This document shows positions 2,560-16,744 of a DNA stretch of 42,272 nt, one piece after another. The notes under the pieces are model-generated. The model had not been told where the DNA came from and made no database searches. It saw only the letters and a list, made by a program, of their open reading frames with translations. This DNA is from a virus. Its lineage: Duplodnaviria; Heunggongvirae; Uroviricota; Caudoviricetes. Made by a program: the position numbers and the translations under genes. Every line of letters starts with the position of its first letter. Positions within the stretch are counted from its first letter, which is position 1. The stretch is taken from IMG/VR virus record IMGVR_UViG_2529292726_000021; one strand, 5' to 3'.

Positions 2560-3340
2560 CCCGATTTGGTCTAAAAAATTGACGTTTTCACACATCACTT
2601 CTTATACCCGTAATTCTACGCAGCAGATAGCGCCACAGCGTCCAATTTTCACCACAGACGACCCAACACACTACCAACAAAAACACACGCTCAAAATCGC
2701 TCCCGTTGCGTTACATAACCATATAAACAACTTATTTTCAGGCATAACAAAACAACTAAATAACACACATGCCATTCCCAAAAACAACCAACCTCTTTAT
2801 GGCAGGCTACCGAAAAGACCCACCTCTTCTCCCCAGGCTACCGGACAACCAACCTAACTTTCACAGGCAATCCGAAAACATTCATACGCGCGATACCCAC
2901 GACACGCCATTCCCCAAACAGCGAAGAAACACCAGAATCACTGAAACCCCAACGAAGCCTGTAACCGCAAGGATTCTCTCAATCCCAAAAGACACGAAAC
3001 ATAACAATCACGGGAAACGCCATTACCCAATACACGAATAACTACAAAAGCCTTTCACACACTCCAGACAAACAACTCAAACACAATAACGAAAGGAATC
3101 GCCCACCTGCCATTACTCCATACACGGAGAAGAACAATCACCAAAACGACGAGAACACCCCATAGAAGAACCACCGCAAAACGAACGAAACCACATACAC
3201 CGACAGAGAAAACAACACACCCAATTCACCAACAGAAATAGTCGCCGTATAGAACGTTCTGGAAGGAGTGAGCATTAACGCCTATAGAGAGGTTGAGACA
3301 GATAAAACACAACATGTATAGCGAAGAAGCCAGGTATGTA
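2560..3340 (+). other. A+C-rich, G/T-poor strand-asymmetric tract; candidate non-coding transcript or protein-binding region
   Basis: Sampled 60-nt lines are about 80% A+C on the plus strand; degenerate repeats GCCATT(C/A)CCCAA at about 2772, 2908, 3020, 3110; half copy of the early motif (AAGAAAACAAC, 2515-2525) just upstream. Confidence 0.35.
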
Positions 3341-3353
3341 TAAGTGGGGAGGG

Positions 3354-3378
3354 AAGGAGGGGTGTCGCCTCCTTTTTC
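3354..3378 (+). terminator. candidate terminator hairpin at end of the A+C tract
   Basis: AAGGAGG-ggtgtcg-CCTCCTT followed by a T run; preceded by G-run GGGGAGGGAAGGAGGGG. Confidence 0.4.
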
Positions 3379-3440
3379 GTATTTATTCAACTCCTGATTT
3401 TATCCCCCCGTAACACCCCTACGGTCAGCCTTCGGTCCAT

Positions 3441-3580
3441 ACAGGGAAAAGGTTGCATCCCGCTACAGAAACGGCTGGGTTGCCTTCGGGGAACGGCTGG
3501 AGGTTTTCAGGGAAACGGTCGAGTTGCCTGTGTGGATTTCGGGAAAAGGCTCGATGCCGGTTCAGGAACGGTGGCGTACC
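3441..3580. repeat. iteron-like direct repeat array 1 (six ~21-23 bp imperfect units)
   Basis: Units GGGAAAAGGTTG, AGAAACGGCTGG, GGGGAACGGCTGG, GGGAAACGGTCG, GGGAAAAGGCTCG, GGAACGGTGGCG spaced about two helical turns apart. Confidence 0.6.
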
Positions 3581-3888
3581 GGTATAGCGAGAGGGAGAGT
3601 TGCGGCTACCCACCTGTAATGTGCGGGAAGAAGAGAGGCGCTCACGTGCAGGCGGACTTGCTTACCGCTGGATTCCCTCTGAATGCCAGCTACAGCGTAA
3701 TTGTGCCAGACAGCCAACGGGTCACAATCGATTTCAGTAGGTTTTCGGGGAGAGGATTATTCTGCCCCCCAGCCACTTTCGGCCACTAAATCAGAATAAT
3801 GTAAAAAGTGTACTCGGTACTGAACCTGAAAACTCACTGCCAAAACCACATTCACCGGAATAAAATCCTTTTTCGCCTGTGTGTTATT

Positions 3889-3927
3889 GCGATAATAACA
3901 CCATCAAGAAAACATGTTGTTTAAGGA
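3889..3927 (+). promoter_or_regulatory. early promoter/leader module, copy
   Basis: GCGATAATAACACCATC followed by AAGAAAACAtgTTGTTTAAGGA; ATG at 3935. Confidence 0.5.
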
Positions 3928-3934
3928 TTGCTTT

Positions 3935-4264
3935 ATGTTTGCAAATATCGACATCAACCAAATCAAGAAAATGACTCAAAAAGAGTTTGACCAGTTTTAT
4001 GAGCTGGAAGGTTGGTCTTCCACTCTGATTAATTCAAGATGGGTGCTGGAACTGATGACTCGTGATGACGCACCTGCTTTGATGATCAGCGACCTGGGTG
4101 AAGATGCTGACTTTATGGATATGAGCGAATTTTGTGTGGACACATACAACCGCAGCCAGAAGTACTACTTCACATGCGATAGCGAAAATGACGTGATTTC
4201 TAAGGTCTATCTTCACCTCGTCCAGCATTGGGACGTTCAGGACTTCCTTGAGATGTTCGCGTAA
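3935..4264 (+). CDS. hypothetical small acidic protein (109 aa)
   Basis: Start moved from track ATG 3914 (inside the motif) to ATG 3935, which has AAGGA 8 nt upstream. Confidence 0.55.
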   Translation: MFANIDINQIKKMTQKEFDQFYELEGWSSTLINSRWVLELMTRDDAPALMISDLGEDADFMDMSEFCVDTYNRSQKYYFTCDSENDVISKVYLHLVQHWDVQDFLEMFA

Positions 4265-4273
4265 ACTCAACCA

Positions 4274-4300
4274 AAGCCAGCATTGCTGGCTTAATTTCTC
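4274..4300 (+). terminator. candidate terminator
   Basis: AAGCCAGCA-tt-GCTGGCTT hairpin followed by AATTTCTCT. Confidence 0.45.
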
Positions 4301-4373
4301 TATAGCCGCAGGGAAGAACCTGCATATAGCTCATGCACCTGATCAATATGCTTTGTAGCCGTTTTCTTACTGG

Positions 4374-4412
4374 TATTATTTACGCCATTGAGAAAACAAG
4401 TTGTTTACGGAG
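4374..4412 (+). promoter_or_regulatory. early promoter/leader module, copy
   Basis: GAGAAAACAAGTTGTTTACGGAG immediately before ATG 4418. Confidence 0.5.
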
Positions 4413-4417
4413 TTGTG

Positions 4418-4729
4418 ATGAAAAAATCATTGGTTCTTGGTCTGGACAAAGACCAGAAGAGAAAAGAGAAGCCTGCGCTGGTTGCTCAATTAACTTTGCT
4501 GGACATCGTTGCCAATGGAACCTCTATTCGTCTGTTCCGTGAAACAGCGGTGTCTTTCGATAAAAACACCTTTACTCGTTATGTAATGAATGTTCGTCGC
4601 CAGCGTGGAAAAGGCTGGGTGGCATTTCAAAGAATGTGGCCGGAACATCAGCTCGAACTGGCTTTGATGGAAGTTAACCGCGTGGCCCAGCAAGAGATTC
4701 AGAGAGCATCAGTGATGGCAATAGCCTGA
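4418..4729 (+). CDS. hypothetical small basic protein (103 aa)
   Basis: Track ORF starts at a TTG inside the motif (4388); ATG at 4418 with ACGGAG upstream preferred. Confidence 0.55.
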   Translation: MKKSLVLGLDKDQKRKEKPALVAQLTLLDIVANGTSIRLFRETAVSFDKNTFTRYVMNVRRQRGKGWVAFQRMWPEHQLELALMEVNRVAQQEIQRASVMAIA

Positions 4730-4765
4730 TAATGTGCAAGTGGTAATTAGTCGACCGTACGACAG

Positions 4766-4792
4766 CCCCGCCATCCTTACGGGGTTTTTTTG
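4766..4792 (+). terminator. rho-independent terminator
   Basis: CCCCG-ccatcctta-CGGGG followed by TTTTTTT. Confidence 0.75.
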
Positions 4793-4855
4793 TATTGTAA
4801 GTACATACTTACGATCATAGAATATAAAAATAACCAATACACTACGGAGAGTGAA

Positions 4856-5251
4856 ATGACCGTTAAACGCGAAAAACTGACAGTTGATGTTTACTATGCC
4901 TCTGAAACCGCCGAAGGTAAGAATGTGGCAAAAATCACCGTTGTTACGTACAACACCGAAACTGGTGCCGAAGTACAGGCCAGTACGATCGTGCGTAAAT
5001 GTGATGCCTCCGGCGGCGAGTACGCGACTCAATACCAGTCCATTCTCGATGCAACTGACCCGCTGCTGCTGAAAATCGAGAACTACTTCCGCCAGGTTGA
5101 TGAAGAGGTGTTTGAAACCATGATGAATATGGTTAATTCCGTATTCACCTCCAGCCTGAACACCAGCACCACCTGGATTGGTCAGTACGGCCTGCGCATT
5201 ACCTCTGGCATTCCTGCTGACACCTTAATCCCTGAAAGCGTATTCGCTTAA
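4856..5251 (+). CDS. hypothetical protein (131 aa)
   Basis: ATG 4856 with ACGGAGAG upstream; track ORF start 4790 lies in the terminator region and is unlikely. Confidence 0.6.
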   Translation: MTVKREKLTVDVYYASETAEGKNVAKITVVTYNTETGAEVQASTIVRKCDASGGEYATQYQSILDATDPLLLKIENYFRQVDEEVFETMMNMVNSVFTSSLNTSTTWIGQYGLRITSGIPADTLIPESVFA

Positions 5252-5260
5252 TCCTCTTTA

Positions 5261-5288
5261 AATGGCGCGTAAACCGCGCCATTTTCTT
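5261..5288 (+). terminator. rho-independent terminator
   Basis: AATGGCGCG-taaa-CCGCGCCATT followed by TTTCTT. Confidence 0.75.
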
Positions 5289-5296
5289 ATACCCGA

Positions 5297-5359
5297 TAAC
5301 AATTTGTTTTCTACCTTATCTACACTGCGATAATTACAACAACAAGAAAACAAGAGGAA
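5297..5359 (+). promoter_or_regulatory. early promoter/leader module, copy
   Basis: ATAACAAtTTGTTTTCTACC (5297-5315), GATAAT (5329-5334), AAGAAAACAAGAGG (5345-5358); ATG 5365. Confidence 0.5.
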
Positions 5360-5364
5360 AGCAG

Positions 5365-5559
5365 ATGAAAACTATTACTCAAGTACAGCAAATCTGGGCG
5401 CAGCTAGCAAATGAGCCTGTGGATAACAATCAGCAGCTTGAGCGTGCATTTCACCATTTTGAAGCCGGTGACAGCATCATTGACGTGTGGGTGTGGATCG
5501 ACGGGCTGTGTCCAGATATCACCGTTGCACAGTTGCAGGAGATGGGGCACGATGACTGA
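5365..5559 (+). CDS. hypothetical small protein (64 aa)
   Basis: ATG with AGAGGAAAG upstream. Confidence 0.5.
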   Translation: MKTITQVQQIWAQLANEPVDNNQQLERAFHHFEAGDSIIDVWVWIDGLCPDITVAQLQEMGHDD

Positions 5560-5637
5560 TCTCACCATTACCCCAAAAGCACAAAATGTATTCCTTGAAT
5601 CATGGCTGGATTTGCCGCATTAAGTGAGAGTATTACG

Positions 5638-5901
5638 ATGGCAAAATTGACCAGAGCGCAGGAGCATGACCTGCGACGCGCAATTTATGATCTTGAAAGG
5701 GGGATCGCGTATCTGCGACACCCAAAAACTGCGGTTTGCTATCGCCACGATTACCCTGCAACTACCACATCGGCATATTCATCGCACGACGGGAAGACAT
5801 CACTTTCCCCTGTTTGCATCGACTACGGCTCGAATATCGTCGGTCTTTATCATGCGCTAGAAACGTTGAAAGAGTTCGTTGCAGCACATCGAAAGCAATG
5901 A
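5638..5901 (+). CDS. hypothetical small protein (87 aa)
   Basis: Internal ATG 5638 preceded by GTGAGAG preferred over track start 5602, which lacks an SD; start uncertain. Confidence 0.45.
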   Translation: MAKLTRAQEHDLRRAIYDLERGIAYLRHPKTAVCYRHDYPATTTSAYSSHDGKTSLSPVCIDYGSNIVGLYHALETLKEFVAAHRKQ

Positions 5902-6030
5902 TATATAGGCTGCCAATGCTGGTGGCCTTAAATGACCATCCTGTTCCACGCAGGCTAAAAACACCAACCTCTTACCTCTAGGCAACCGACAAACCCACCT
6001 GTTCCCGTCCGGCTACCGCAACTTTCCACT

Positions 6031-6090
6031 TTGACGCCTTATTCGTACAACGATAATTAACACCAACAAGAAAACAATTTGTTATTTACG
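6031..6090 (+). promoter_or_regulatory. early promoter/leader module, copy with sigma70-like -35
   Basis: TTGACG (6031-6036), 17 bp, TAATTA within CGATAATTAACACCAAC, then AAGAAAACAAtTTGTTATTTACG (6068-6090); ATG 6105. Confidence 0.55.
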
Positions 6091-6104
6091 ATAAGGAATT
6101 AATC

Positions 6105-6587
6105 ATGAATTTTATCGCTACTGTAAACGCACCCGCACATGGCAATATCGCTGTAACGTTCTCTGACATTGAAAAACGAGTACTTGGTGCATGGCGCGAC
6201 AATGAGACGGTAGAACTGTCAGCACAAGAAAAATGCAATATTGCACGCGACATCATTGGCAATCGTCGTTACTCGCGGGTATTTGAGAAAGCGTATGTGG
6301 TAAATTCTGGATTCGGAACGTTCGTCTTTCCGGTGCGCTCCGGGCGATTCTGCCAGTCCAAGCTGATTGAGTTCGCTACGCAGATTTCTTTCTGGATTAA
6401 AACTCAATCGTCGTTCAAATTTTCCGACGATGAAGCAGTATCGCAGGGGATGCGGATCGCCAACAATGCGATTAAATGCAAAAACATTACGTATACCGCT
6501 GGCGTTGATACATGGAAACTGTTTTGCGCTAACTTTATGCTGAATGTATACGCAAGCAACCGCATCCACATCCTTGATGGCGTGTAA
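6105..6587 (+). CDS. hypothetical protein (160 aa)
   Basis: ATG with AAGGAA 7 nt upstream; no motif recognised. Confidence 0.6.
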   Translation: MNFIATVNAPAHGNIAVTFSDIEKRVLGAWRDNETVELSAQEKCNIARDIIGNRRYSRVFEKAYVVNSGFGTFVFPVRSGRFCQSKLIEFATQISFWIKTQSSFKFSDDEAVSQGMRIANNAIKCKNITYTAGVDTWKLFCANFMLNVYASNRIHILDGV

Positions 6588-6596
6588 CTGAGAAGA

Positions 6597-6618
6597 GGGC
6601 CAGAAACGGCCCTTTATC
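6597..6618 (+). terminator. candidate terminator
   Basis: GGGCC-agaaac-GGCCC followed by TTTATCT. Confidence 0.45.
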
Positions 6619-6636
6619 TATAGCCACCAGCTGCCG

Positions 6637-6761
6637 CAGGGAAATTTTCAGAAGCGGCGAGGAACGTATTCATGAGCCGACGGGGGAACGGCCAGGATTT
6701 TTTCGGGAAACGGCTGCATTCGCCTTTGTGTAGAAAAAACATCGGGAAGCTGGTGGAATCC
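6637..6761. repeat. iteron-like direct repeat array 2
   Basis: GGGGGAACGGCCAGG, GGGAAACGGCTGCATTCGCC, GGGAAGCTGGTGGAATCC share the GGRAAMGGYTG core of array 1. Confidence 0.55.
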
Positions 6762-6842
6762 AACCAGCGGTTGTCGGACAGGTGAGCGAGGAAAATTATG
6801 ATGACTTTCGTCGCCTGAGACATCCAGATTTCTTTCGTAGCG

Positions 6843-6897
6843 TAATCACATATGTGATTAAGTGGTGTGATTATGTGAAAAATCACGCGCACATAAT
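6843..6897. promoter_or_regulatory. cluster of palindromic operator-like sites
   Basis: Perfect 18-bp palindrome TAATCACATATGTGATTA (6843-6860) followed by further TGTGATTA / CACATAAT half-sites. Confidence 0.45.
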
Positions 6898-7134
6898 ACG
6901 CGAGCGGATACGGAGCAAAACAAAATGCCGATCCGCGCCGACAAATAAACGCGGATCATAAAGCAAGACTAAAAGCCAATAATTAACCATACTCTATAGC
7001 GCAATATAACGCGTTTTAAGCGCGTTAATGTGTTAAGTAATGGGTATATACTGGTAAGGATATAAAAGCTCGTCTGTGGCGTTATTTTGGCGCTTATTTT
7101 TATGTTGTTGGAGTGAGTTAAAGACAATAAAAAA

Positions 7135-7214
7135 GCGCCACTATTGGCGCGTTATGGTGGAAGTATTGGAAACGAAAAAAGCGCCCATAGTGGGCGCTAT
7201 TGTTTTTATTTTTC
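7135..7214. terminator. tandem hairpins; bidirectional terminator
   Basis: GCGCCA-ctat-TGGCGC (7135-7150) and GCGCCCA-tag-TGGGCGC (7181-7197) flanked by A runs on one side and T runs on the other. Confidence 0.65.
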
Positions 7215-7706: not shown

Positions 7707-8357
7707 TTACGCTTTGAAAGCATCAGCTAAATAATTGTAGAAATCATTTTTAATGAAGCGATATTGCTGAGTACCAGCTTTCGCGCTCCCAGCTCCTTTG
7801 ACTTTTTCAACAAGTCCAAGACGTTCGCAAAGATTGATCAACTGGTTGGCTTGAGTATAGCCAGCGTCCAATTTAATTTCACACGCTTTTTTAGCTTCAT
7901 TCATTAAATCGAAAACAGCGCCATTCGTGAACGTGTCGATCTCGTCGTTAATCATATCGATTAAAGCGAATACACGAGATCCAGACATATCAGCGACGGA
8001 ATAAACACATTTACCAGCTTTAATGGATTTAACCAGATAAACCAGTTTTTCCAGTGAATAACTATTAGTCATTGCATCACGGAAAAATACTTCTGGCGCT
8101 TGTTTACTTGCTTTAATCGCATAGTAGAAAACAGAGCATAATTTTTCGTCTTCTACTGCGTTTACGACGTTGTTGATGAAGTAAGCAAGTTTCGTGGTCG
8201 CAGCTTGCATGTTTGCTTTGTCTGCTTTTGTGTGCGTACCATTTTTATAATGTTCGTTATATGTTTGAGTTGCCAGATCTGCTTTTTCGCGCAGTTCATC
8301 GGATACAATGGAAGCAGCTTCAATGATGGATTTTTTAGAAATGATAATGTTAGTCAT
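7707..8357 (-). CDS. hypothetical protein A (216 aa), AT-rich cassette
   Basis: ATG with AAGGAA upstream; no recognisable catalytic motif; AT-rich codon usage. Confidence 0.6.
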   Translation of the reverse strand: MTNIIISKKSIIEAASIVSDELREKADLATQTYNEHYKNGTHTKADKANMQAATTKLAYFINNVVNAVEDEKLCSVFYYAIKASKQAPEVFFRDAMTNSYSLEKLVYLVKSIKAGKCVYSVADMSGSRVFALIDMINDEIDTFTNGAVFDLMNEAKKACEIKLDAGYTQANQLINLCERLGLVEKVKGAGSAKAGTQQYRFIKNDFYNYLADAFKA

Positions 8358-8655
8358 GATTTTATTCCTTAGTATAAATATTAAAATTTAACTCAAGAAA
8401 GAAAGTGTTTTGCACTCGTTCCTGATGCGTTCAATTATCGATACGCGAAAAAAGATTGCAAGTGTTTTTTTTAAGTTTTTTTGCAGGGGTGAAAGTCCTA
8501 GAAATAAAAGTTAGATCGTCGAAGGTGTTCCCTAAATAAATAATAAATTCCGGCTTTTGACCTTATATATTTATACGGGGGAGAATTGAATGAGTGTTAA
8601 ACGAATGGCATGTAAAATAATAACCGGACTTAGCCGATTATTACCCTTATAGAAA

Positions 8656-9174
8656 TTAAAACGGAAGGATTCGTTCAACCCAATCGAAGAAAATAAGTAT
8701 TTTTCTACCGTCTTCCAACTTAAGTGTGACTAGACAGGCGTCAACGCCATCTGACGTTCCCTCAATTTCGCGACCGTCTGCCATGTAGACCCTTATAGAT
8801 TTGCCGTTTTGGTAAGCCTGACGACATATCTTAAAAAAGTCACGACGTGATGGCTGATTAACCATCTGTTCATTGTTTAGCGTTAGTCGACCTGTGAATG
8901 AAGTGTCAACCTCTTCTATGCCCGACTCAATTGTGCTAATGCGCTCAAGAGGGAGCCTTATACGATTTGTGTTGCTAAGCGGATCTGGTGTGAGGTTCAG
9001 CTTATTTCTTGCGCTCAATAGCCCGTAGACATACATGCAAAACACTTGGCCGTCTTCGAGAGTGACTCTTACAGGAAATTTTGCACTCCGCCAGAAGAGC
9101 AAGGTGCGCTCAGCATGTTCGTAGTCTCGCGGCCAGACTTCAGCCGGTATGCCGTAGGTGATGTCTTTAACCAT
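8656..9174 (-). CDS. hypothetical protein (172 aa) with internal repeat
   Basis: ATG with AAGG upstream; two related segments (VRVTLEDGQVFCMYVY and VTLKLEDGRKILIFFDWV). Confidence 0.55.
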   Translation of the reverse strand: MVKDITYGIPAEVWPRDYEHAERTLLFWRSAKFPVRVTLEDGQVFCMYVYGLLSARNKLNLTPDPLSNTNRIRLPLERISTIESGIEEVDTSFTGRLTLNNEQMVNQPSRRDFFKICRQAYQNGKSIRVYMADGREIEGTSDGVDACLVTLKLEDGRKILIFFDWVERILPF

Positions 9175-9276
9175 AGTCTACCTTTTTAAGTCTTTTTTGG
9201 TCATTATATACATCTCTATGATGCGTAGACAGACTAACCGTACATTCCACCAAAAATTGATTATGGAATAAGTTTC

Positions 9277-10077
9277 ATGAAGAATGGGGTGAATAAAAAA
9301 TACTCATTAGCATTGTTAATAGCGGCTTTACTATTAACAGGTTGTGATTCTGATGAAGAGCGAGCCATAGATCTAGTTGAAAAGGATATTCGCTCTACAC
9401 TGCTAGATCCTGATGCTGGTCGGTTCACGAATATGCGAGCTATTCAGTTAGGTGAAAATAGCTATTCATATATGGTATGTGGAGAGGTGAATGGTAAAAA
9501 CGTCTTGAACGCCTATACAGGTGCGACCGCATTCAATGCACACATCTTTGATGTTCGTGAACGTAACCCGATTGTATTCGTTGCAATGGATAAAAGTACC
9601 AACTCGGCAAGAGAACGATTACGTTTTGAACGCCAAAATCTAGCATGTAAAGAAAATGGTGTGAAACTTTATCTGGAAAACGAATCTAAAATCAGGAAGG
9701 AAAAAGAGAAAATAGATGATTTAAAAAAAACTCCATTAGGTCAGGCTGTGTTTGATGCTGCAAGTGATTCGACATATGTGAGTAGAGAGTTGGGCGAATC
9801 GAGAGGTGTTAGTGAAGTGTATGCAAGAGAAAATGATAAATATGCTCTTGTTAGCGTCACCAATTATGACACTCCTGACTTTTACAAATTTAGGAAAAAA
9901 GACAACGGTGAACTAGAACCTGTTAGGGGACTGTCTTATACCGGCTATCCATTCGCGGTTACACTGTGCCATTCTGAACAAACAGATTATGACAAATGTA
10001 TAACAGAAGAAGAAATCAAGTTGCTTCGAGACGAAAAGAATAAGCTCGATGATTTTGTCGTGCCACCAGAAGAATAA
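9277..10077 (+). CDS. putative lipoprotein (266 aa)
   Basis: N-terminus MKNGVNKKYSLALLIAALLLTGC has a signal peptide and lipobox (LTGC) with Cys at residue 23; AT-rich. Confidence 0.65.
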   Translation: MKNGVNKKYSLALLIAALLLTGCDSDEERAIDLVEKDIRSTLLDPDAGRFTNMRAIQLGENSYSYMVCGEVNGKNVLNAYTGATAFNAHIFDVRERNPIVFVAMDKSTNSARERLRFERQNLACKENGVKLYLENESKIRKEKEKIDDLKKTPLGQAVFDAASDSTYVSRELGESRGVSEVYARENDKYALVSVTNYDTPDFYKFRKKDNGELEPVRGLSYTGYPFAVTLCHSEQTDYDKCITEEEIKLLRDEKNKLDDFVVPPEE

Positions 10078-13764: not shown

Positions 13765-13846
13765 AAACCTCTTTCCTTAGTGCCTTTTGTATGTTATTTG
13801 GCTATTATAATAAGTAAGTGATTACTTAGTGGATTGTAGCAATAAA

Positions 13847-14527
13847 ATGGATGTAAAAATCACGATTTTGCAGGTTGATGTTGCCAACCTTCGCCCGAAT
13901 ACCTGGAACACCAATTCGGTTGGTGCGCAGAATTTTGAAAAACTGAAAGGTTCTATCGAAAAATTGGGCTTTTTTAAGCCAATTTTGGCTCGTGAACTTG
14001 AAGATGGATTTTTTGAAATCCTCGGCGGCGAACATCGCTGGCGTGCCGCTATTGAGCAAGGAATTTCAACGGTTCCAGTGCTTTCTGTGGGCAAAATTAG
14101 CGATGTCGTAGCTAAACAGATGTCACTGGTGGACAACGAGCGATACGGTGAAGACGACCAAATCGCATTGCAACGCTTCATTGAAGAAATTCAGTCAGAA
14201 CTTGACTATCAACTGTCTGAAATCGCCCCGTATGACGACGAAATCTCGATGGTTTTAGCAAAAGAGGCGGCAATCGACCTTGAAGCACTGGAGGCGTTGT
14301 CTCGTGGTAGTGATGAGCCTGTCGATACCGACAAACGAGAGAAAACCGAACGTGTCGGTGCGGAACATCAGACCATGCGCTTCAAAGTAACTTTCGATGC
14401 GTCAGATCGCGTTGCAGAAACCATAAAAAACATCATCAAAGAGCAGGCTATTAACACCGGTAATGAAATGGAGAACGCTGGTGAGGCTCTGGTGTGGCTG
14501 GTCGACTACTACAAGGAGCGTATGTAA
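13847..14527 (+). CDS. ParB-like N-terminal domain protein
   Basis: GGEHRWRAA resembles the ParB/sulfiredoxin GxxRxxA box; start ambiguous (GTG 13829 or ATG 13847). Confidence 0.55.
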   Translation: MDVKITILQVDVANLRPNTWNTNSVGAQNFEKLKGSIEKLGFFKPILARELEDGFFEILGGEHRWRAAIEQGISTVPVLSVGKISDVVAKQMSLVDNERYGEDDQIALQRFIEEIQSELDYQLSEIAPYDDEISMVLAKEAAIDLEALEALSRGSDEPVDTDKREKTERVGAEHQTMRFKVTFDASDRVAETIKNIIKEQAINTGNEMENAGEALVWLVDYYKERM

Positions 14528-15195
14528 TGACCAAAAAGTTTGAAATCGTATATCGCGACCCGGCAGATCTTATTCCCTATGAGATGAATGCCAAAAAGCA
14601 TGATGAACAGCAGATCAGAGATCTGGCCGCAGCCATTAAAAAGCGCGGATTTGACCAGCCAATTACGGTCGATAAGAACGACGTAATTATTACTGGCCAC
14701 GGCCTCCGTGAGGCTGCAATTTTTGCTGGACTTGAGCGCGTACCGGTTATTGTTCGTGATGATCTGAGTGATGACGAGGTACGTGCAAAGCGCCTTGAAG
14801 ATAACCGACTTGCCAGCATTGATTACGATGCAATTAAGCTACAGAAAGAGCTTGAGTCGCTTGTTCTGGACGATATCGAGGTTTTCGGCTTCGAAGAGCG
14901 TGAGTTGAATGTTCTCGTTGGCAGTATGACAGAAGAAATGGACACCGACTCGCTAGTTATCGATCTTGGCGAAGAAACTAAACGACAGAAGGATGAACAC
15001 ACCGAGATCAGTCGTGAAGTTGCAGCGGAAGAAGTACGTGTTGTCGACGTATTGGGCTTTAAAACGCTTCCTGCTGGCTCTGCCATTGTTGTTGGTGATT
15101 TGCTTGCCCACATGGAAGAAATGACGGGAGAAAGCGGGGTAGACGCATTTGTGGCATATGCGGAGAAGATCTCTTCCGGGGAGATGGCTGCATGA
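14527..15195 (+). CDS. second ParB-like domain protein
   Basis: TGHGLREAA box; ATG overlaps the preceding stop (TAATG); track start 14494 would overlap the upstream gene. Confidence 0.5.
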   Translation: MTKKFEIVYRDPADLIPYEMNAKKHDEQQIRDLAAAIKKRGFDQPITVDKNDVIITGHGLREAAIFAGLERVPVIVRDDLSDDEVRAKRLEDNRLASIDYDAIKLQKELESLVLDDIEVFGFEERELNVLVGSMTEEMDTDSLVIDLGEETKRQKDEHTEISREVAAEEVRVVDVLGFKTLPAGSAIVVGDLLAHMEEMTGESGVDAFVAYAEKISSGEMAA

Positions 15196-15857
15196 GCAAA
15201 TACATCATCAACGTATCGTTTCAGACACGCGTAAATAAAACCACGCGCACGTTGGAAATCGCTGAGTCGTTCGGGCTTGGCCTGGACGAAAAAGAGTGGA
15301 CGCTTTACGACAATCTGGAGCTGGAAGTGAAGCAGGGCGATGTGGTGTACATCACCGGCCAATCCGGTTCCGGCAAATCCGTTGTGCTGCGCGAGTTGCA
15401 ACGACAGATGAAGGATGAAGGGCTGTCTGTAGCCTCCATCGATGATTTTACCTTCGATAATGAGGTTAACGTCATCGATCAGTTGGGCAAAACGACCAGT
15501 GATGCGCTTGGGTTGTTATCTATGGCTGGTCTGAACGATGCATATCTGTTTGTTCGCAAGCCTTCTGAAATGTCAGACGGCCAGAAATATCGTCTCAAGA
15601 TTGCCAAACTGATTGAGTCAGGCGCTAAAGTATGGGCTGCTGACGAGTTCGGCGCTGTTCTAGACCGTGTAACCGCTCAGGTTGTGGCGTCTAACCTCCA
15701 GCGTGCCGCTCGAAAGGTTGGTGCGACGGTAATGGTGGCGACGACTCACGAAGACCTGAAGAACGCGCTGCGCCCGGATATGCAGATCACCAAGCACTAC
15801 AAAGAACGCGTGAAGGTGGAATATCACAATGGTAGTCATGATGAGGTCCATTCATGA
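15192..15857 (+). CDS. compact ABC-type ATPase (221 aa)
   Basis: Walker A GQSGSGKS, signature-like SDGQ, Walker B VWAADEFG, H-loop ATTHED; ATGA overlap with upstream gene. Confidence 0.65.
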   Translation: MSKYIINVSFQTRVNKTTRTLEIAESFGLGLDEKEWTLYDNLELEVKQGDVVYITGQSGSGKSVVLRELQRQMKDEGLSVASIDDFTFDNEVNVIDQLGKTTSDALGLLSMAGLNDAYLFVRKPSEMSDGQKYRLKIAKLIESGAKVWAADEFGAVLDRVTAQVVASNLQRAARKVGATVMVATTHEDLKNALRPDMQITKHYKERVKVEYHNGSHDEVHS

Positions 15858-16744
15858 CGGACATCATCATTAAACGCTACCGCCCTGAAGAGTTTCCGCG
15901 TCATCTGGACTTTCTGGAGCGAATGACTGTTACAAAGGGAACTGTAGAGGACTGGCACGCTCTTAAGTCGCTTCACTACAAAACAGACGGCAAACCTTTC
16001 GCGCCAACTTACTATCGCTGCGAACTTGATGACCGTCTGGTGGGCGTCGTGGTTATGGCTTACCCGAAACTACTGCTGGCACCTCGCCACCGCATGTTTC
16101 CTAAGTTGAAACCAACCACTAATACCACCGTGGCTAACCAGTACTGGGGTCGGTACGTGAATAACAACTTTGCGGTGATCAGTCGCTCAGTTGTGGATAC
16201 TCAGTATCGTGGCGTAGGCGTCTCTTATCGAATGATTAACCTGGTTAGCAGGATGCATGACCGGCCAATCATTGAGATCCAGTCCTCGATGAGCAAATAC
16301 AATCCCTTCGCCATGAAAGCAGGGTTTAAGTTCATCCGCCCTGAGCGACCGAAGAGCTATGAAAGTGCACTGCGTGTATTCCAGCGCCATTTTCGTTCCG
16401 ACCCGGGTGATAACGAGGCGATCGTCAAAGAGTTGTTCGCAATGAGCGAGTCTCGTCGTCGCCGTGCACTGCGTGATCTGGTGGCGGACTACCATAAGAA
16501 CAGTTCCCTGGCAAAAGCTGGGCGGAATCGTGGCACGACGATTCAGGACATTGCCGACAGTCTGGTGGACGAGGCCAGCATTGTGAAGTTGCTCAAGGAC
16601 ATTCACAACCTGAGCTTTACGTCTCCGTTGTATGGGGTGTATCGAAACCCTGACTTTGGTCGTCGACTGCCTGACACGCTGCCACTGCTGGCATTCGACA
16701 AACAACCTTTGGATAAACCGTTAGAAATTGCTTTACCGGCATAA
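15854..16744 (+). CDS. GNAT-like acetyltransferase-fold protein with C-terminal extension (296 aa)
   Basis: VVDTQYRGVGVSYRMINLV fits GNAT motif A (Q/R-x-x-G-x-G/A); ATGA overlap with the ATPase gene. Confidence 0.45.
   Translation: MTDIIIKRYRPEEFPRHLDFLERMTVTKGTVEDWHALKSLHYKTDGKPFAPTYYRCELDDRLVGVVVMAYPKLLLAPRHRMFPKLKPTTNTTVANQYWGRYVNNNFAVISRSVVDTQYRGVGVSYRMINLVSRMHDRPIIEIQSSMSKYNPFAMKAGFKFIRPERPKSYESALRVFQRHFRSDPGDNEAIVKELFAMSESRRRRALRDLVADYHKNSSLAKAGRNRGTTIQDIADSLVDEASIVKLLKDIHNLSFTSPLYGVYRNPDFGRRLPDTLPLLAFDKQPLDKPLEIALPA

Follow-up and report, generated by a model that had tools for sequence, protein, structure and literature searches.

Paired arrays of a short phased motif in SSU5-type phage-plasmids, one of them between inward-facing Chi octamers

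Here, we describe two arrays of one short repeat in the viral contig IMGVR_UViG_2529292726_000021 (42,272 nt; this whole stretch is called the window in the following), which is part of an Escherichia coli SSU5-type phage-plasmid. One of them, array 2, lies within positions 6597–6761 and had been noticed from the letters alone in an original prediction, as a second, iteron-like array with oppositely oriented Chi octamers at its ends; that observation was confirmed, and its interpretation was partly supported. In more than 700 related plasmids and phages, arrays 1 and 2 occur together on one strand, with 1.5–4.2 kb between them and a variable block of gene cassettes inside. Sequence comparison gives firm support to the view that these paired, phased, genome-unique and non-coding sites, which are under purifying selection, bear the signature of a cis-acting protein-binding element. 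From this signature we infer binding by a protein, the identity of the binder, the pairing of the arrays and their biological role. In the reading that we favour, with a probability of about 0.4, the arrays would be docking sites for a dedicated protein and carry a centromere-like or handcuffing-type complex nucleated by a winged-helix protein, to which a pair of Chi sites would have been added in the crown group.

SSU5-type phage-plasmids (pHCM2, pKPHS1, pLF82/Cyrano and the relatives of Yersinia pestis pMT1) are common in clinical Enterobacteriaceae and carry resistance genes. Their RepA replicon is annotated, while a centromere, a lytic origin and most of the regulatory logic lack annotation. 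A pair of unique, deeply conserved cis sites together with a candidate binder thus offers a concrete handle on one missing function of these elements.

Two arrays of one phased motif

The motif is a 13-bp asymmetric site (GRGAAAMGGCTGG) with every copy on one strand, and the consensus of 38 distinct copies is yMGRGAAAMGGCTGG. To avoid circularity, a 17-nt weight matrix was trained only on the six copies of array 1 (3441..3576, plus strand), which start at 3441, 3463, 3485, 3507, 3538 and 3560, with spacings of 22, 22, 22, 31 and 22 bp. Array 2 lies 3164–3195 bp away, in agreement with the predicted 3.2 kb, and consists of one consensus copy and two or three weak ones, likewise on the plus strand and spaced by 34, 22 and 39 bp. 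The consensus copy, copy c (TTCGGGAAACGGCTGCA, 6702–6718), scores 23.1 bits, which is the top score in the 42-kb window and exceeds that of every training site. Copy b (ACGGGGGAACGGCCAGG, 6680–6696, 8.3 bits) starts 22 bp ahead of copy c, and the weak copy a (TTTCAGAAGCGGCGAGG, 6646–6662, 7.3 bits), absent from the earlier list of copies, is preceded by 11 bp by a half-site (CAGGGAAA, 6637–6644). On the right, a degenerate copy or half-site (6741–6757, 5.4 bits) has a GGGA that is invariant in relatives. The strings of the three core copies named in the original prediction were verified (GGGGGAACGGCC at 6682–6693, GGGAAACGGCTG at 6705–6716 and GGGAAGCTGGTGG at 6744–6756), the third being a half-motif GGGA fused to Chi. 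The cluster proposed for 6597–6761 is real and smaller than implied, as its supposed left end, 6597–6612, is a terminator hairpin that scores 0.9 bits and has a loop resembling the motif without being a copy of it.

The two arrays are more alike than shuffled sequence of the same kind. The best site over 300 dinucleotide-preserving shuffles, from which array 1 had been removed, reached 22.7 bits, so that none attained 23.1 bits, and the cluster statistic of 31.4 was attained in one shuffle of 300. Searching the window with the IUPAC form GRGAAAMGGYTG and one mismatch allowed gave eight matches against 1.6 expected, six of them inside the two arrays. In Cyrano (108 kb), sites of at least 15 bits were confined to array 1 (six) and array 2 (one, with neighbours of 13.2 and 9.3 bits).

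Bases 3000–7200 of the window are 94–97% identical to the ~108-kb SSU5-type E. coli phage-plasmids Cyrano (pLF82), CMS-2020a and PhiR41_1, and the two array segments searched are both 100% identical to the E. coli plasmid CP025888.1 (111,957 bp). Matches to array 2 were found in 762 plasmids of PLSDB and matches to array 1 in 713; both arrays are present in ~45 IMG/VR contigs and likewise in Kluyvera and Buttiauxella. SSU5 and Klebsiella phage-plasmids have both arrays on the same strand although their flanks are only 66–74% identical, and the deep relatives L130, L131 and L140 have kept both while their flanking, syntenic proteins are only 30–55% identical. On one strand of L140 the 8-mer GGRAAMGG is found 15 times, always inside the two arrays; the other strand has it once. 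L138, the most AT-rich of the distant relatives, showed no direct repeats in the corresponding gap (8640–9400, reverse-complemented), which holds two GGGAA-spacer-TTTCCC inverted repeats (GGGAAAGTTTTCCC and GGGAACGTTTTCCC) ~60 bp apart; here the half-site is kept and the arrangement altered.

Within the arrays, conservation follows the motif. In core columns it reaches 0.93 in array 2 and 0.83 in array 1, compared with 0.79 and 0.68 in the remaining columns, and its maximum is at offset 0. GCAGGGAA, in the region of the half-site and copy a (6637–6662), is invariant in alignment A1, GGGAAACGGCCAG of copy b is kept in all relatives aligned, and GGGAAACGGC of copy c is invariant across seven divergent relatives. 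The copy at 6646 reads AGAAGCGG in the window; at the homologous position, Cyrano, PhiR41_1 and SSU5 have AGAAACGG, with a score of 13.2 bits. Array 1 is kept in SSU5, Klebsiella and the deeper relatives; exactly one of its 22-bp units is missing in PhiR41_1. Neighbouring copies are mostly spaced by multiples of 11 bp: 83 of 101 distinct spacings deviate from such a multiple by no more than 1.5 bp, with 22 (43 cases), 33–34 (20), 31 (10) and 44 bp (9) as the most frequent, and the copies therefore lie on one face of the helix. About 13 bp of each 22-bp unit are conserved, which suits a single winged-helix domain, and the remaining 9-bp spacers are variable.

Array 2 sits in a 618-bp gap between convergent genes. 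The left limit of this transcription-free gap is the intrinsic terminator of a 160-aa gene (GGGCC-AGAAAC-GGCCC followed by a T-rich tail, 6597..6619, plus strand), whose stem pairing survives one- and two-sided changes in relatives (GGGCC/GGCCC versus GGGGC/GCCCC) and is the sole well-supported helix in an RNAalifold run. At the right, the gap is closed by four terminator-like hairpins on the minus strand (7198–7180, 7150–7135, 6958–6929 and 6902–6886; overall 6886..7198), two of which, GCGCCCATAGTGGGCGC and GCGCCA..TGGCGC, are strongly conserved in alignment A5. Another intrinsic terminator (3351..3378, plus strand) stands just upstream of array 1, after a ~680-nt stretch that is rich in A and C and poor in G and T. 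The only promoter-like match near either array, at 6775–6802, is not conserved in relatives. Operator sites would be expected at a promoter, whereas array 2 lies between convergent terminators and array 1 follows a terminator.

Chi octamers around array 2

The predicted pair of oppositely oriented Chi octamers proved exact and recurs in relatives. The left one (6624..6631) is CCACCAGC on the plus strand and hence 5'-GCTGGTGG-3' on the minus strand; the right one, GCTGGTGG on the plus strand (6749–6756), overlaps the degenerate motif copy. The two thus face each other across a 117-bp cluster of sites. RecBCD recognises Chi from its 3' side, and because of this orientation rule both octamers are active for an enzyme moving towards the array and not for one moving away, the left octamer acting on rightward and the right octamer on leftward movement. 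Such an inward orientation excludes a role in protecting ends made within the array, as at a pac site, a nick site or a fork barrier. A pac site or genome terminus was also rejected by this reasoning, both octamers being inactive for ends made in the array, and terS lies 10.5 kb away. Convergent genes would fit a replication terminus or fork barrier, but Chi points the opposite way to what would be expected, nor does the site lie diametrically across from the RepA origin.

Nine Chi octamers were counted in the window and 25 (13 + 12) in Cyrano, that is, about one per 4.3–4.7 kb, as in E. coli. From the 13 + 12 sites of Cyrano, ~0.4 inward-facing pairs within 300 bp are expected per genome, so that a single such pair is unsurprising. 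Its recurrence was surveyed in 51 distinct crown-group sequences of array 2; these represent only about three right-flank alleles. A left Chi was present at -58 to -61 in 43 of the 51 and a right-hand Chi in 50, and octamers of opposite orientation were absent from both sides in all of them. The right Chi takes three non-homologous offsets, ~+65 in the E. coli lineage, +86 in the pJN2-26 lineage of Klebsiella and +110 in that of SSU5, p4727 and Kluyvera, and at each of these offsets the other lineages have non-Chi sequence between shared anchors. By our own estimate, at ~1.2e-4 per bp and orientation, two further independent right-hand octamers within ~130 bp have a joint probability of ~2e-4, and a recurrence of Chi at non-homologous positions by chance is improbable. 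In SSU5, PhiR41_1, Buttiauxella and Y. pestis, the left octamer deviates by one base; in the pMT1-type plasmids of Y. pestis, both octamers do (CCACCAGT and GCCGGTGG). In favour of selection on Chi, 50 of the 51 sequences have a right-hand octamer, at three offsets, and none has one of opposite orientation; against it stand the small number of alleles, the absence of the pair from deep relatives and its decay in Y. pestis. If Chi is indeed kept by turnover at a protein-binding site, a mobile element would provide an uncommon and testable example of single Chi sites under selection. We found no description of an inward Chi pair around a cluster of protein sites in the literature.

Chi of enteric bacteria, the RecBCD hotspot, is the system to which the pair belongs by its exact octamers in an enterobacterial replicon and its E. 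coli-like density; what sets it apart is that its two octamers face each other across the cluster and that the right-hand octamer recurs by turnover in three lineages. Array 1 is without Chi in the window. As a separate observation, L140 has at ~13600 (reversed), beside its array 1, the sequence CTGCCGCAGCTGGTGG, which is a Chi octamer joined to a CTGCCGCAG element, and in the window a CTGCCGCAG element adjoins the left Chi of array 2 (CCACCAGCTGCCGCAGGG).

Possible roles of the arrays

In the favoured reading, a dedicated DNA-binding protein of SSU5-type phage-plasmids would bind the copies cooperatively, and its oligomerising helical domain would pair array 2 with array 1, either by forming a loop within one molecule that encloses the cassette block or by handcuffing separate plasmid copies. 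Terminators on both sides would shield the complex from transcription, and the inward Chi pair would switch RecBCD arriving from either side to its RecA-loading mode just before the complex, which may both protect the site and make the array a crossover point. A non-coding array of helically phased short repeats that is unique in its replicon is what a centromere of the repeat-array type (parC/tubC-like) should look like, and such an array is present. A winged-helix gene lies 1 kb away, with no adjacent NTPase gene; of the two parA-like genes of Cyrano, one is MinD/ParA-like and precedes array 1 by ~4.5 kb, and the other, a type Ib parA, is ~66 kb off. No repeat array was found beside the type Ib parA operon, which we count in favour of this reading.

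The candidate binder is a conserved protein of 216 aa, helical in its N-terminal part and with a winged helix-turn-helix at the C terminus; its gene (7707..8357, minus strand) lies 1 kb to the right of array 2. The structural model of the protein resembles the TubR/ArsR winged helix, and a Foldseek search of a viral library gave only weak winged-helix matches. The family is small, with 102 clusters in a word-indexed search and 23 matches among 1.84 billion representatives, and in relatives the gene is always syntenic with the array-2 gap. T168 and Q169, the residues that open the putative recognition helix, are invariant down to 22–30% identity, which fits, without proving, binding to sites containing GGGAAA. 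Among the proteins encoded near the arrays this one appears to be the best candidate. Searches of Pfam, NCBIfam, PHROGs, PADLOC and PDB sequences gave no match for the small proteins neighbouring the arrays; a further neighbour of 244 aa is acidic and helical.

A degraded derivative bears on the stage at which the arrays may act. The 52,356-bp E. coli plasmid CP057440.1 has lost the virion and replisome genes and contains IS100, ISEc52 and a type I restriction-modification system. Both arrays, the cassette block and the 216-aa gene have survived in it, together with repA, the small parA, the integrase, the XRE repressor, UvsW and the FljA-like gene. This single case leans towards a role in the plasmid state.

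The TubR-tubC systems of pBtoxis and the c-st phage-plasmid and the ParR-parC system of R1, with 11-bp repeats in two blocks, resemble the present arrangement in their non-coding short repeats phased at ~11 bp and set in blocks, and here, too, a TubR/ArsR-like winged-helix gene is nearby on a low-copy phage-plasmid. Unlike these systems, the SSU5-type elements have no TubZ, ParM or ParA gene in an operon with the winged-helix gene, their spacers are 9 bp long and variable, and their blocks lie kilobases rather than tens of bp apart. The dispersed centromere (SopB) sites of the phage-plasmid N15 are scattered in the genome and also affect gene expression. They share with the arrays a position far from the partition genes and at the borders of functional gene blocks, but they are single inverted repeats, whereas the sites described here are phased direct-repeat arrays.

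Several points weigh against this reading. No partition NTPase gene is adjacent, the parA-like genes of Cyrano being 4.5 kb and ~66 kb off. Array 2 occurs without array 1 in 55 Yersinia plasmids of PLSDB and in the Y. pestis pMT1-type contig that we examined (L135, from NCTC5923), which has the 216-aa gene and intact motif copies in array 2; pairing of the arrays is therefore not essential to plasmid maintenance in pMT1-type plasmids. The Chi pair is a crown-group add-on, absent from the deepest relatives L130, L131 and L138 and decayed in Y. pestis. The 3' half of the motif, GCTGG, is already five-eighths of Chi, and such a partial proto-Chi raises the chance of an octamer arising beside motif copies; the 51 sequences surveyed come down to about three right-flank alleles. 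Finally, the 216-aa protein could bind other conserved motifs instead, for instance a palindrome at 6844–6859 or the AAACAAnTTGTTT elements described below.

A somewhat unlikely alternative is that the arrays are iterons of a second, non-RepA origin, either a lytic one or an origin with a distant enhancer like ori and crr of P4 or gamma and alpha-beta of R6K, with an initiator looping the two. The element has helicase, primase and Pol III genes of its own, for which it requires a lytic origin, yet these replisome genes lie ~60 kb off and the arrays are kept in the derivative that has lost them. The term iteron-like used in the original prediction holds for the arrangement, as there are at least three direct repeats of 17–22 bp phased at ~22 bp (five or six in one cluster, and a smaller, distant cluster in the same orientation), of which only ~13 bp per unit are conserved; it is not supported in the sense of Rep-binding repeats at an origin. 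Such a 13-bp core is shorter than the footprint of a two-domain Rep. In the shortest relatives the order array, two genes, array is like incC-repA-incA of P1, but no Rep-family or other known initiator was found next to the arrays when the neighbours were compared with Pfam, NCBIfam and PHROG, and the 160-aa protein is without a fold match. An AT-rich unwinding region and host-factor sites are lacking, GC being 0.49–0.61 around both arrays, and none of the DnaA-box, IHF, GATC (Dam) or 13-mer features was enriched at the arrays. Chi reverses its orientation at array 2 in the manner of a bidirectional origin, by an established orientation rule, whereas the genes converge on array 2, which is the orientation of a terminus. 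The GC skew is uninformative, because it follows gene orientation.

The arrays were rejected as iterons of RepA itself: in Cyrano RepA lies 35 kb away with unrelated CTCTCTATAGTGGATA repeats of 21-bp period, and no GGGAAACGG cluster is found at repA. The iterons of IncpKPHS1 adjoin repA (PMC6735626). Compared with the iteron plasmids P1 (incC/incA), F, RK2 and R6K (gamma and alpha/beta), the SSU5-type elements share direct repeats phased at 22 bp, a larger and a smaller cluster in the same orientation and kilobases apart, variation in copy number by whole units and a plausible pairing or handcuffing; they differ in having a RepA with its own iterons 35 kb off, in the absence of an adjacent Rep gene, DnaA boxes and an AT-rich region, and in a core that covers ~13 of 22 bp. 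In phage P4, ori and crr are clusters of octamers bound by the alpha protein, 4.5 kb apart. There, as here, two clusters of one short asymmetric motif stand several kb apart with genes between them on a phage-plasmid-like element, independently of DnaA; the present arrays have no primase-helicase initiator gene between or beside them.

Two unrelated viral contigs, L022 (4262–4375) and L031 (886–996), contain four 22-bp repeats (GGAAACGGCAnnAnnGCCGAAT) followed by ACAGATC repeats within an open reading frame (ORF) of ~350 aa. By analogy, their GGAAACGG at 22-bp spacing looks like lambdoid-type origin iterons inside an initiator gene, and these 22-bp arrays with GGAAACGGC beside GATC-rich repeats could be counted for a second origin. 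A lambdoid link was rejected, as the replication-protein-like ORFs with the GGAAACGGC arrays have no similarity to the 216-aa protein and no Pfam match.

We regard as unlikely the view that the arrays are a boundary or silencer, where a regulator bound at both would loop out the accessory block and set its expression, comparable to the long-range looping of lambda CI between OL and OR or to ParB/SopB silencing by spreading. In its favour, the block lies between the arrays in all relatives with sufficient flanking sequence, irrespective of the length or content of the block, at distances from 1.47 kb (L057 and L072) to 4.2 kb. Array 1 is upstream of the first promoter of the block and array 2 past its last terminator, the winged-helix protein and an FljA-like regulator are encoded beside array 2, and only some genes of the block are expressed in the lysogen (PMC9928086). 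Yet neither array overlaps a conserved promoter, and pMT1-type plasmids hold array 2 alone. Every cassette, moreover, has its own promoter-like sequence followed by the element AAGAAAACAAnTTGTTT, so that the arrays are not operators of the block. The window has nine occurrences of this element (0.33 expected) and Cyrano 18, among them ones ahead of parA, the helicase gene, a ribonucleotide reductase gene and terS. Because this promoter element is shared with such genes, the early character proposed for the block at 3.9–6.6 kb is not supported.

Improbable, in our view, is a dedicated RecBCD/Chi recombination site that cyclises injected linear DNA, primes recombination-dependent replication or exchanges the cassette block. 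The array with its inward Chi sites would then be a place of hand-off from RecBCD to RecA, at which broken or injected DNA is recircularised or rescued or replication is primed, while the bound protein marks or holds the ends. If true, such a cis-acting repair or cyclisation centre would be one without description for plasmids or phages. The turnover of Chi at three positions with no octamer of opposite orientation would fit, the element encodes UvsX/UvsY/UvsW/gp32-like recombination proteins, and by our reasoning from the RecBCD rule 3' tails that begin at either Chi would complement each other over the 117 bp of the array. Two recombinants, L028 and L129, have E. coli-type sequence to the left and SSU5-type sequence to the right of a junction that falls within copy c, the last motif copy of array 2, and between the two Chi sites. 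This junction and the loss of a 22-bp unit of array 1 in PhiR41_1 count in support of the original interpretation; most mosaic boundaries among relatives lie elsewhere, at promoter/leader elements (3907–3923, 5321 and 5907). The pair is also absent from deep relatives that keep both arrays, array 1 has no Chi in the window, the independent alleles number only about three, and the motif itself is a partial proto-Chi.

Chance resemblance, a neutral relic of duplication and an RNA or coding feature (a CsrA-type GGA sponge, a structured RNA or a small ORF) are essentially excluded, although array 2 has only one strong copy in the window, is overlapped by an ORF on the minus strand (6614–6892) and has copies that contain GGA: the shuffle and IUPAC tests, the placement between terminators and cores that are conserved above their spacers in relatives with 66–74% identical flanks argue against chance, the array region has no Rfam match, folding compared with shuffles gave z-scores of -0.67 and +0.35 with covariation only in the terminator, and a coding repeat is ruled out by the 22-bp period, which is not a multiple of 3, by indels that break the frame in relatives and by inconsistent annotations across arrays. 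We found no description of these repeats in the literature on the motif or on Chi together with iterons.

Neighbouring features

The window starts with the end of a methionyl-tRNA synthetase gene; small genes of unassigned function and genes for regulators, a UvsW-like helicase and two ParB_N proteins follow, and then come the terminase, head and tail genes. Inside the cassette block, two genes are kept even in the shortest relatives, namely a gene of unassigned function (phrog_5125, 4388..4729, plus strand) and the 160-aa gene (phrog_1641, 6105..6587, plus strand), which ends 10 bp before the terminator at the left of array 2. The model of the 160-aa protein is confident, with a pLDDT (predicted local distance difference test) of 86, and a fold search with it gave no match.

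The AAGAAAACAAnTTGTTT sequence is part of a conserved element of ~32 nt, (G)ATAATTAACACC..AAGAAAACAAnTTGTTT, with the palindrome AAACAAnTTGTTT, which stands 25–35 nt upstream of the start codons of many operons and is found in the window at 1234, 1285, 2725, 3910, 4394, 5297, 6072, 17139 and 17164. It is probably a family-specific promoter with operator, or else a 5' leader hairpin.

The intergenic gap also contains, on the right-hand side of array 2, a perfect palindrome of 16 bp (AATCACATATGTGATT, 6844–6859), after which come the related half-sites GTGTGATTATGTGA and AATCACGCGCACATAAT (6844–6900); GTGATTATGTG of this region is kept in SSU5-type relatives, and the palindrome is possibly an operator for a neighbouring regulator. 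The four minus-strand hairpins come after a gene that ends at 7206, and a conserved stretch rich in ATAACGC/TAAGCGC lies between them (6990–7040). Small minus-strand transcripts or another cis element are possible at 6886–7198. The equivalent region of L131 has an 8-bp tandem array of ~7 copies resembling GCTAAATG (8732–8801).

The A+C-rich stretch upstream of array 1 (2580–3260, ~680 nt) has almost no G or T on the plus strand, with an AT skew of up to +0.74 and a GC skew down to -0.49. It begins past a promoter- or leader-like element near 2500–2535 and ends at the terminator 3351–3378, and it has counterparts in L131 (2180–3200, ~1 kb) and L140 (13340–14700, reversed). Part of it is the sole piece of 3000–7200 that megablast matches in SSU5. 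The stretch could give a long unstructured, CA/ARN-rich RNA, for example one that binds Hfq or Rho, or it could be a zone of Rho-dependent termination.

Further to the right, the FljA-like protein (repressor of phase-1 flagellin, PF03614, E = 1e-68) is encoded at 8656–9174 on the minus strand. Two tandem genes for ParB_N-domain proteins (13829–15195 and 15192–16744, plus strand) and one for an ABC/AAA-type ATPase follow, just upstream of the terminase genes, and this FljA-like/ParB_N/ATPase module is kept in all relatives, the most distant included.

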